Source: an uncultured Ruminococcus sp.
Lineage (GTDB): Bacteria > Bacillota > Clostridia > Oscillospirales > CAG-272
DNA length: 26,529 nt
Reading direction: 5' to 3'
Assembly (NCBI GenBank): GCA_902796505.1
Contig: CADBPA010000182.1
Span: 1-26,529 of the forward strand
The notes beneath the pieces were generated by a model that was not told the DNA's origin, did no database searches, and worked only from the letters and a program-made list of their open reading frames with translations. This document shows positions 24,406-26,529 of the stretch, piece by piece (position 1 is the first letter of the stretch; each line of letters begins with the position of its first letter). The position numbers and the translations under genes were made by a program.

Positions 24406-25257
24406 ATGCAAGAACAAAGAAACAATCAGCTCCCCTTCCAGGGAGAGGGGAGAGGAAACGTCATTATCGACACCGATCGCGTGATGGACTGCTGCCGCGA
24501 CCGGGACTGCTTCGAGAATGCGCGCGTCTATCTTTCGCCCGCCGGGCAGGATGCGCTCTCGAACGCGACCAACGTCCGTATCCGTTCGGTCAAGATCCTC
24601 TGGGCGTACGTCGGGCTGGATGAAGTTCCGTTCAACCGCGGATTCTACCAGGTCACCGTTCGCTATTATATCGACGTCGAGTGCGAGATCTGCCTCGGCC
24701 TGAATCGCAGTCAGATCACCCACGGTCTCTCGATCCTCGAAAAGGACGTGATCCTTTACGGCGGCGAGGGGAGCGTTCAGAGCTTCTCGTCCGATCCGAT
24801 GAACGATTACTGCAACATCGGAAACTTCGACACGGTCGGCAGCAACGATCCGACCGCCGTCGTCGAATCCGCCGCGCCGATCGTCCTCGGCTCGAAGGTC
24901 AAGGAATGCGGCTGCCCGACGCCAAATAACGAGCTCGTCGAGATCCCCGATCGCGTGAAAGGGCTGATGGACGCCGATCCGATCATCCTTACCGACGGCG
25001 TGCGCCTCTACGTCTCTTTCGGCATCTTCTCGGTCATCCGCATTCAGCGCCCGGCGCAGCTCGTCGTTCAGGCGGCGGATTACAGCGTACCGGAGAAGGA
25101 ATGCGTCGCCGCGCAGAACGACGACAATCCCTGCCAGCTCTTCCGCACGATGCCGTTCCCGGTCGGCGAATTCCGCGCTACCGAACACGGCGAACAGAAT
25201 CGCCCGATTCGCGGCGGCGGTGGATGCGGCTGCGGCGGCAACAGAAACGGCAACTGA
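24406..25257 (+). CDS. Cysteine-rich hypothetical protein, putative spore coat/exosporium component (283 aa)
   Basis: AAGGGAG SD before ATG 24406; 12 Cys, including DCCRDRDC, CGC and a terminal GGGGCGCGG; no signal peptide; flanked by terminators. Function is inferred. Confidence 0.6.
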   Translation: MQEQRNNQLPFQGEGRGNVIIDTDRVMDCCRDRDCFENARVYLSPAGQDALSNATNVRIRSVKILWAYVGLDEVPFNRGFYQVTVRYYIDVECEICLGLNRSQITHGLSILEKDVILYGGEGSVQSFSSDPMNDYCNIGNFDTVGSNDPTAVVESAAPIVLGSKVKECGCPTPNNELVEIPDRVKGLMDADPIILTDGVRLYVSFGIFSVIRIQRPAQLVVQAADYSVPEKECVAAQNDDNPCQLFRTMPFPVGEFRATEHGEQNRPIRGGGGCGCGGNRNGN

Positions 25258-25271
25258 ATCACCCCATAAAG

Positions 25272-25301
25272 AAAGATGCCTCGTTACGGGGCATCTTTTT
25301 T
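25272..25301. terminator. Bidirectional terminator between convergent genes
   Basis: AAAGATGCCTCG-tta-CGGGGCATCTTT hairpin (one G-U pair), T run on the plus side and A-rich flank on the other. Confidence 0.85.
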
Positions 25302-25319
25302 CTATCCCGGAAAACCGGA

Positions 25320-26102
25320 TCATTCTTTTTTAAAATTCTGCCGCATGATCTCATAGCCGAACATCGTGACGGCGGAAGCGGCGGACAGAGAGGCTCCGAA
25401 GTCGCGCGCATAGGGGATGCGGACGCGAAGATCGCAGAGGTCGAGCAGTTCGCGCGAGATCCCGCGCCGCTCGCCGCCGGCGATCAGAAGAAGAGGCTTT
25501 TTCAGTTCGGTCGCACCGAGCAGATCGTCGGTGCGCTCATCGGCGCAAAGAATGCGATACCCCCTTGCGCGGAAAAGTTTTGCCGCCGCGGTCGGCTCGG
25601 CGGTGTAGGCGGGGAGCAGCTCGGACGCACCGGCGGAACTGCGGCAAACGACGCCGGCGGCGCTGAACCAGTTACGCCCCGGAAGGATCACGCCGTCCAC
25701 GCCGCAGGCATAAAGCGAGCGGAGCGCGTAACCGAAGTTGTAGGGATCTTCGATCCCTTGGATCAAAGCAAAGAAACCGTTTTCGGGAAGGGAAGTCGTA
25801 TCCTCAAGCGTCGGGATGGTGCGCTTTCCCGCGATCGCGATCAGACCGCCGTTTGACGTTCCGAGCGTCAGTTTTTCGATTTCCTCAGCGCCGCATTCTC
25901 GCAAAGAAAATCTGTATTTTTGCGAAACTGCCCTTAAATATCCGATCTCTTTTATATTTTTTTGTTTTTTCGCTTCGTCATAAAGAACGCTTTCGATCCT
26001 TCTGTCGGAGATGCCGCGGTCGATGGCGGCGATCAGCGCCCGGATCGAAGTCATTCCTTCGAAGACGGTGGAATTCTGAAATTTGATTTCTTCTTTTTGC
26101 AT
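25320..26102 (-). CDS. SpoU/TrmH-family (RlmB-like) RNA 2'-O-methyltransferase
   Basis: IEDPYNFGYALRS (motif 1), AGGERRGIS (motif 2), RIPY...SLSAASA (motif 3), RlmB-like N-terminal domain (FEGMTSIRALI, GTSNGGLIA). Start set at ATG 26102. Confidence 0.88.
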   Translation of the reverse strand: MQKEEIKFQNSTVFEGMTSIRALIAAIDRGISDRRIESVLYDEAKKQKNIKEIGYLRAVSQKYRFSLRECGAEEIEKLTLGTSNGGLIAIAGKRTIPTLEDTTSLPENGFFALIQGIEDPYNFGYALRSLYACGVDGVILPGRNWFSAAGVVCRSSAGASELLPAYTAEPTAAAKLFRARGYRILCADERTDDLLGATELKKPLLLIAGGERRGISRELLDLCDLRVRIPYARDFGASLSAASAVTMFGYEIMRQNFKKE

Positions 26103-26127
26103 TTTCGGAAGATGCCTTTCATATAGT
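26099..26127 (+). promoter_or_regulatory. Sigma-E-type promoter of spoIIID
   Basis: GCATTTT (26099-26105), 14 bp, CATATAGT (26120-26127), against the sigma-E pattern (T/G)CATATT-N14-CATAnAnT. spoIIID is sigma-E-dependent in B. subtilis and C. difficile. Confidence 0.7.
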
Positions 26128-26187
26128 GTAATAACCGAAAAGAGATCGGCGGCAAAGCGGATCACGAAACGGGAAGGAGAAGCGAAC

Positions 26188-26451
26188 GTGAAGAAGATTT
26201 ATCGTGAGCGGTGCGAGGAGATCGCGGGATACGTTCTGGAAAACGGGGCGACCGTCCGATCCGCCGCTCAATACTTCGGGATCAGCAAAAGCACGGTACA
26301 TAAAGATCTCACCGAGAAGCTCGAACGTCTGAATTTCGGGCTTTACGAGGAAGTCAAGAAAGTTCTGGATAAAAACAAGGCGGAACGCCATCTGCGCGGC
26401 GGAGAAGCCACGCGGCGGAAATATCTTCGTCGAAAGGAGCATCCGGGCTGA
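26188..26451 (+). CDS. spoIIID: Stage III sporulation transcriptional regulator SpoIIID
   Basis: ATVRSAAQYFGISKSTVHKDLTEKL and NKAERHLRGGEATRRKY signatures; GTG start after GAAGGAG; 87 aa. Confidence 0.96.
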   Translation: MKKIYRERCEEIAGYVLENGATVRSAAQYFGISKSTVHKDLTEKLERLNFGLYEEVKKVLDKNKAERHLRGGEATRRKYLRRKEHPG

Positions 26452-26479
26452 TTGCGTATCACGTTCATCAACACATCAA

Positions 26480-26508
26480 ATTATAAAGGATTTTCATATT
26501 TTTTTCAA
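26480..26508 (-). promoter_or_regulatory. Sigma-A promoter firing antisense into spoIIID
   Basis: Minus strand: TTGAAA (26508-26503), 17 bp, TATAAT (26485-26480); AT-rich sequence upstream. Confidence 0.8.
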
Positions 26509-26529
26509 GTCCTTTCGCAAAAATTCAAG

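Follow-up and report, generated by a model that had tools for sequence, protein, structure and literature searches.

A conserved sigma-A-type promoter antisense to spoIIID points to a possible excludon with an RNA methylase gene in uncultured gut Clostridia

In excludons, the mutual exclusion of two overlapping transcripts is usually brought about by RNase III, and in Bacillus subtilis the type I toxin-antitoxin loci txpA/RatA and bsrG/SR4 are convergent antisense pairs that overlap at their 3' ends and share a bidirectional terminator. The excludon concept includes a type with a long overlapping 5' untranslated region (UTR), described for mogR and the flagellar export genes of Listeria (PMC7154746), and in Staphylococcus aureus menE-menC-MW1733-ytkD-MW1731 make up a noncontiguous operon (PMC7154746; atlas PMC11034616). 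Moreover, SigB-dependent antisense transcription blocks competence in Bacillus (PMC11633097), and the trans-acting small RNA (sRNA) RCd1 lowers spoIIID in Clostridioides difficile (PMC8583004). In this study we analyzed a stretch of 26,529 nucleotides from an uncultured Ruminococcus sp. (contig CADBPA010000182.1, here called the window), in which the mother-cell regulator gene spoIIID and a gene for a SpoU/TrmH-family RNA 2'-O-methyltransferase (the methylase) are divergent and a sigma-A-type promoter follows the spoIIID stop on the other strand. The best reading of this arrangement, to which we assign a probability of roughly 0.45, is an excludon-type methylase mRNA that runs antisense through spoIIID. 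Comparison of the sequences indicates that the promoter itself is probably real and under selection. In a large genus of uncultured gut Clostridia, about half of the members share the layout.

The antisense promoter and its conservation

The window is one entire contig (G000:C182) of a metagenome-assembled genome (MAG) of 1.78 Mb with 57.7% GC on 277 contigs (G000). The elements of the locus are as follows, with positions counted in the window.

26480 to 26508, minus strand: predicted sigma-A-type promoter, -35 TTGAAA at 26508-26503, spacer of 17 nt, -10 TATAAT at 26485-26480, 11/12 matches
26103 to 26473, minus strand: predicted untranslated leader of 371 nt, with the transcription start site placed about 7 nt below the -10
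26188 to 26451, plus strand: spoIIID, 87 amino acids, GTG start, stop TGA at 26449-26451 (PF12116, E 1e-35; TIGR02844, 112.2 bits against a cut-off of 111.5)
26102 to 25320, minus strand: SpoU/TrmH-family RNA 2'-O-methyltransferase paralogue, 260 amino acids (PF00588, E 8.5e-22)
26099 to 26127, plus strand: candidate sigma-E-type promoter of spoIIID, GCATTTT at 26099-26105, 14 nt, CATATAGT at 26120-26127
25272 to 25298, no strand assigned: hairpin AAGATGCC..GGCATCTT between the methylase stop and a convergent Cys-rich gene; the minus-strand fold of 25255-25330 has a stem of 9+2 bp and then UCUUUAU

The first-pass annotation had reported TTGAAA-N17-TATAAT on the minus strand 28 bp past the spoIIID stop, and all of its coordinates were confirmed, with 28 bases between the stop and the -10. 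By chance, 0.009 sites with at least 11/12 matches are expected in 26452-26529 (78 bp, both strands). Genome-wide, 273 sites of this quality were seen versus 6.9 expected, which demonstrates that the organism really uses near-consensus sigma-A promoters, typically CTTGACA-N17-TATAAT. The promoter behind spoIIID shares with them the C before the -35, and its leave-one-out score on a position weight matrix (PWM) was 21.2 bits, typical of the element in the genus.

The right end of the window is a MAG contig edge 21 bp beyond the -35, and the MAG itself lacks the downstream spacer region and the gene that follows spoIIID. Two independent ENA contigs of the same species (L032 and L033) overlap the window by 551 bp, identical except for three substitutions that all fall in the methylase gene, and extend the locus 1,020 bp past the window end. 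The DNA upstream of the -35 is A-rich and contains two further CTTGAA words, giving three such words in tandem at or upstream of the -35 with spacings of 10-21 nt (window 26503-26529, L032:530-560), of which only the first has a -10 partner. The spacer 3' of spoIIID, past the window end, is non-coding and has 21-30% GC versus 30-55% GC in the spoIIID-methylase stretch (L003, L004, L006, L009, L011, L018), and many MAG contigs, the window included, break inside this AT-rich spacer.

For the main comparison we used 79 loci with a divergent methylase/spoIIID pair, which stem from the window species, from 77 further species of its genus and from one species of a neighbouring family. A second sample consisted of 35 metagenome loci with the divergent pair on independent contigs, and layouts were surveyed in 112 pooled loci. 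The loci come from MAGs of uncultured Oscillospiraceae/'Eubacteriales' in the guts of ruminants and other animals, and the SpoIIID proteins that they encode are 57-75% identical to that of the window. The divergent pairing is kept in all 79 genus-level loci and in the 35 metagenome loci. Promoters were counted in the 400 bp that follow the spoIIID stop, both on the minus strand and, as a built-in control, on the plus strand; the leave-one-out PWM was applied to 77 loci with a threshold of at least 10 bits.

The exact motif TTGAAA-N17-TATAAT was found on the minus strand in 28 of the 79 loci and on the plus strand in none of them. With at least 11/12 matches the counts were 31 minus versus 3 plus and with at least 10/12 matches 46 versus 19, and the PWM gave 40/77 versus 0/77. 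Similar results were obtained for the metagenome contigs, where the motif occurred in 7/35 on the minus strand and never on the plus strand. The methylase(-)/spoIIID(+) order and the motif, for which a check in related genomes had been proposed, were both recovered in relatives. The -35 usually starts 30-120 nt after the spoIIID stop. Both hexamers, the preceding C and the upstream A-tracts are conserved, and the sequence of the 17-nt spacer varies. In a tree of the methylase and SpoIIID, the window is sister to the 53 other rows of its clade, which is the deepest split of that clade, and the element is present in 36 of the 52 scored rows (window included) on both sides of this split as well as in two rows of the other clade. 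Since spoIIID has 0-0.3 bits at its four-fold degenerate third positions, which means that neutral sites are saturated, and since the element lies on both sides of the deepest split, purifying selection on the promoter is indicated.

Such a promoter was absent from all 11 genomes of other families, in which spoIIID has no methylase neighbour. No closer relatives suitable for fine footprinting were found: the best identities were 72-75% for SpoIIID and 68% for the methylase, and only L032 and L033 of the same species are near-identical. Control of the antisense promoter by Spo0A was rejected, as Spo0A boxes lie near it in 3/40 loci and are not conserved. A plus-strand promoter using a palindromic -10 was rejected as well, because a matching -35 exists in L003 only. 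We also attempted to determine how often near-consensus promoters face gene 3' ends genome-wide; the calls, based on open reading frames (ORFs), were unreliable in this GC-rich genome and the result was not used.

Path of the antisense RNA and expression of the methylase

According to the excludon-type reading, the sigma-A-type promoter past the spoIIID stop would fire on the opposite strand, and the minus-strand RNA would cross spoIIID and reach the methylase gene as an mRNA of about 1.2 kb. Its leader, originally put at roughly 370 nt over all of spoIIID and its 5' UTR, is predicted from the promoter position to span 371 nt (26103-26473) and would be antisense to the 3' end, the whole ORF and the 5' UTR of spoIIID and also to the sigma-E-type promoter, while the body would encode the methylase. 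Head-on transcription, or cleavage of the duplex by RNase III, which is encoded in the host genome (210 bits), would then lower spoIIID expression. Conversely, sigma-E-driven transcription of spoIIID would lower expression of the methylase in the mother cell. Of the interpretation in the first-pass annotation, the architecture is supported; the proposed regulatory switch would consist in growth-phase transcription that locks spoIIID off and in sigma-E firing that reverses this state. An mRNA of about 1.2 kb appears to be the most likely product because in this species no intrinsic terminator lies on the path, the search for Rho was negative and no other promoter of the methylase could be recognised.

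A scan of 26102-26508 gave no terminator-like site on either strand, and the best hairpin near the spoIIID stop lacks a T tail. The first hairpin that folding identified downstream of the promoter is the one at 25272-25298, just past the methylase stop, which is likely the end of the minus-strand transcript and would give the total RNA of about 1.2 kb. For spoIIID itself, the likely terminator is a 10-bp hairpin followed by UUUUU (L032:631-662), which lies on the far side of the antisense promoter at about 160 nt from the stop. On the minus strand T6 follows this hairpin, which should insulate the antisense promoter from anything further right. The claim of the first-pass annotation that no terminator lies between spoIIID and the promoter thus stands for this species and fails for most relatives, where a hairpin with T-rich flanks on both sides is found in this place.

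Rho-dependent termination was considered as an objection to a long leader, which has a C/G ratio of 1.36 overall and of up to 2.6 in its last 150 nt. The objection was rejected: although the leader is C-rich, none of 41 genus genomes with a completeness of at least 90% (the window MAG and 40 others) had a Rho above the TIGR00767 cut-off. The weak hits of the Rho model were pairs of open frames of about 470-530 amino acids, probably ATPase subunits. We also rejected a 107-codon antisense ORF (26442-26119) as a sign of a translated leader, as stops occur in all antisense frames in most relatives and the frame is a shadow of a GC-rich gene. Between the promoter and spoIIID no tRNA, Rfam family or conserved small ORF was found, and no tRNA or known RNA gene lies between the genes or beyond them.

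Other features of the non-coding DNA around the locus were observed in single contigs. In L035 a unit of about 45 nt (..tatctatccca.atctttaaaa..cttgaat.tattttta) is tandemly repeated between the antisense promoter and spoIIID. The ENA contig L032 ends in a non-coding stretch (1400-1571) that holds many GTAACA words (tgtaacagaag...gtaacatttgtaacatgtaacagaag). In L013 a match to the Gut-1 RNA (RF01706) lies at 10-82 on the plus strand, about 700 bp beyond the methylase 3' end on the far side from spoIIID, with 49 bits against a gathering score of 50.

A promoter of its own was not recognisable for the methylase. In 62/79 loci the minus strand from the methylase ATG up to the spoIIID stop contained no sigma-A-type site with at least 9/12 matches, and the hits in the remaining loci were scattered; extended -10 motifs available to the methylase were present in only 8/79 loci. 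These results agree with the earlier statement that the 85 bp between the two start codons hold no good sigma-A promoter, and extend it to the spoIIID stop. A fixed hexamer 22 nt before the methylase ATG was rejected as a promoter, because the essential TAnnnT is found in only 26/79 loci and a -35 never. Synonymous-site conservation gave no two-box element embedded in spoIIID, with mildly raised values only at the codons S-K-S-T-V-H-K-D, and an own sigma-A promoter was found neither in the intergenic region nor inside spoIIID. As a positive control for the scan, the conserved gene downstream of spoIIID showed an extended -10 in 23/25 loci. In the genus this gene follows 200-1000 bp after spoIIID and encodes a conserved protein of about 140 amino acids without a Pfam family (MKMKLRVLT...PPAYPCDxERLVVIF; L015:1966-2388, plus strand, and orthologues). 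Its extended -10 reads TGnTAnAAT; in several species it belongs to a palindrome, AATTATACAAAAT-N-ATTTTGTATAATT, as one of the two arms, and a mirror-image -10 thus also faces spoIIID (L032:1290-1320, 763-775).

In B. subtilis, the sigma-E consensus comprises a CATAcAnT-like -10 and a kmATAtt-like -35 about 14 nt apart. The region upstream of spoIIID fits this consensus in both boxes and in the N14 spacing, and the candidate promoter overlaps the methylase start codon (26100-26102) as well as the methylase Shine-Dalgarno (SD) sequence (GAAAGG, read as CCTTTC, 26115-26120). CATAnnnT occurs in 74/79 loci, and in 66/79 it follows the methylase CAT at a constant 17 nt. A nearly invariant intergenic consensus, cCtTTCATATatT, represents both the sigma-E-type -10 and the methylase SD; together with the spoIIID 5' UTR it occupies the short intergenic region, whose length is mostly 50-95 bp. 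The sigma-E-type promoter (GCATTTT-N14-CATATAGT) was thereby found over the start of the methylase as originally described, and it should be considered that its bases also encode the methylase SD and N-terminus, which is another cause for part of the conservation.

The spoIIID gene has the SD AAGGAG 7 nt upstream of its start, and the divergent start codons of spoIIID and the methylase are 85 bp apart. The methylase ATG at 26102 is backed by an alignment from residue 1 in about 78 relatives. RlmB models matched the methylase only below their cut-offs. Six hits to the SpoU_methylase domain were found in G000 (including C204:6242-6658 and C213:15085-15507), and since the window copy (79.6 bits) scores well under two others (147 and 118 bits), it is probably not the RlmB orthologue. 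A full-length sigE candidate in G000 reached 312 bits, below the equivalog cut-off of 348.6, and adjoins a second sporulation-type sigma gene.

Layouts in relatives and alternative explanations

In the other clade (clade A), a CpsB/CapC-family (PHP-type) phosphatase gene is convergent on spoIIID (e.g. L005, L010, L014, L044, L057, L064, L083, L088-L090). Its stop codon lies at -20 to +11 relative to the spoIIID stop, that is from 20 nt inside to 11 nt beyond, with the stops overlapping. As this leaves no room for a terminator between the two genes, minus-strand transcription must enter spoIIID antisense in clade A, with a mutual antisense overlap of the two 3' ends. The pooled 112 loci comprised 58 with the antisense promoter, 23 with an abutting convergent ORF, 28 with neither within 300 bp and four with an intergenic promoter; two of these four have the longest intergenic regions (230 and 259 bp), and both lack the antisense promoter. 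Such a pattern would be expected if minus-strand transcription from beyond spoIIID expressed the methylase. A generalization of this to the whole Rho-less genus is tentative and, judged from the sequences, rather unlikely. Here spoIIID would be nested antisense within the only transcription unit of the methylase, started by the sigma-A promoter in one clade and by the CpsB-like gene in the other. Methylase and SpoIIID would be mutually exclusive in a developmental excludon that links RNA modification to cell fate and shapes the timing of the SpoIIID pulse.

Several observations weigh against an excludon-type mRNA. In most relatives that have the promoter, the spoIIID terminator hairpin (core ..AGGGAAG(TA)CCCT..) separates it from spoIIID, with mean flanks of 5.4 T per 10 nt on the minus strand versus 4.6 on the plus strand, and in these hairpin-bearing relatives the antisense RNA could end after 30-80 nt, short of the methylase. 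Only in the window species and about eight relatives, in which the -10 is at most 20 nt from the spoIIID stop, is the path free of a hairpin. The missing consensus promoter would also be compatible with a methylase promoter that is weak, activator-dependent or recognised by an alternative sigma factor. Moreover, about a quarter of the loci (28/112) have no promoter within 300 bp and no abutting gene, and several genus loci among these carry orphan minus-strand promoters further out. The related loci are not independent, and the supported branches of the tree force only about five state changes. Finally, the leader is C-rich and G-poor over its last 150 nt, which would be a disadvantage in the presence of a Rho-like activity.

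These relatives suggest the main alternative explanation, which we consider somewhat doubtful, in which the promoter is real and its RNA is a short cis-antisense or transcription-interference element for the 3' end and terminator of spoIIID. The RNA would end at the bidirectional hairpin seen in relatives and affect the stability or termination of the spoIIID mRNA or act through RNA polymerases that meet head-on; an unrecognised promoter of its own would express the methylase, and read-through to it in the window species would be incidental. In addition to the T-rich flanks of the hairpin on both strands, the position of the promoter fits this explanation, being tied to the spoIIID stop and terminator (the -10 is only 1-90 nt away) and not to the methylase. 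The 16-mer GGGTAGGGTACTTCCC, which is the core of the hairpin, is unique in each of five genomes searched (L049, L055, L069, L058, L072). In some species the hairpin nucleotides lie inside the spoIIID ORF (C-terminal ..GSTLP, overlapping the stop) and in others after an earlier in-frame stop; because the same nucleotides are coding in some species and non-coding in others, GGGTAGGGTACTTCCC is conserved at the nucleic-acid level. RCd1 of C. difficile provides a precedent for RNA-level control of spoIIID (PMC8583004). However, a short RNA leaves the universally conserved methylase without a recognisable promoter in 62/79 loci and gives no account of the swap of the promoter for an abutting convergent gene in the other clade. 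Nor can the RNA be short in the window species and its roughly eight relatives that have no hairpin in between.

That the conserved motif is not a promoter, and instead is a protein-binding or structural DNA element or a plus-strand-acting part of the spoIIID 3' UTR that resembles the hexamers in AT-rich DNA, is improbable: promoter-like words are commoner in a spacer of 21-30% GC, the motif lies inside the spoIIID transcription unit of the window species with the likely terminator (L032:631-662) beyond it, and several relatives have a partly palindromic -10 region (ATTATATAAT), but the conserved positions are exactly two hexamers at 17-nt spacing with the C before the -35 and the A-tracts, as in the 273 promoters of the genome, the spacer sequence is free to vary, the strands differ by 28 versus 0, and neither an Rfam family or tRNA in the region nor conserved Spo0A boxes (3/40) were found.

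Comparison with known systems

SpoIIID sets the timing of the mother-cell programme, for which its level must rise and then fall. It is known to be controlled by sigma-E and by autoregulation, and in C. difficile by a trans-acting sRNA as well; a cis-antisense promoter that is conserved would be a new layer of this control. The first-pass annotation knew of no such arrangement for spoIIID, and our literature search gave no cis-antisense arrangement or promoter either, only the trans-acting RCd1 (PMC8583004). All carriers are uncultured MAGs from animal guts, which is a practical limit. The locus would be among the few overlapping-transcription units that are backed by deep comparative conservation instead of one transcriptome, and it suggests that long antisense leaders can go untranslated at little cost in Clostridia that lack Rho.

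The layout fits the definition of an excludon of the long overlapping 5' UTR type, of which the locus is a putative member. As in the Listeria mogR excludon, the genes are divergent and a distal promoter beyond the neighbour would give a long leader that is fully antisense to this neighbour. RNase III is encoded, and one gene is developmental (spoIIID) and the other one of growth (the methylase), which also resembles an excludon. In contrast to mogR, which has a proximal promoter, none is recognisable for the methylase. The distal promoter is of the housekeeping type and not dependent on a stress sigma factor, the methylase and SpoIIID have no known functional opposition, and many relatives have a terminator-like hairpin inside the presumed leader, all of which differs from the Listeria excludon.

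In clade A the locus also resembles a noncontiguous operon, as the CpsB-like gene and the methylase are co-oriented and flank spoIIID on the opposite strand without room for a terminator, the geometry by which such operons are defined. The window species differs in this respect, since in L032 the 1.1 kb beyond spoIIID contain the promoter and no credible gene on the minus strand. A further likeness is that to txpA/RatA and bsrG/SR4, because in most relatives transcription from the promoter would run straight into the convergent gene's terminator and give a short RNA against the spoIIID 3' end. Unlike in these loci, SpoIIID is a transcription factor and not a toxin, and no shared terminator exists in the window species. 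RCd1 differs from the arrangement described here in that it acts in trans and is unrelated in sequence. What the proposed arrangement would have in common with RCd1 and with the SigB-dependent antisense transcription of Bacillus is the restraint of a cell-fate regulator at the RNA level.

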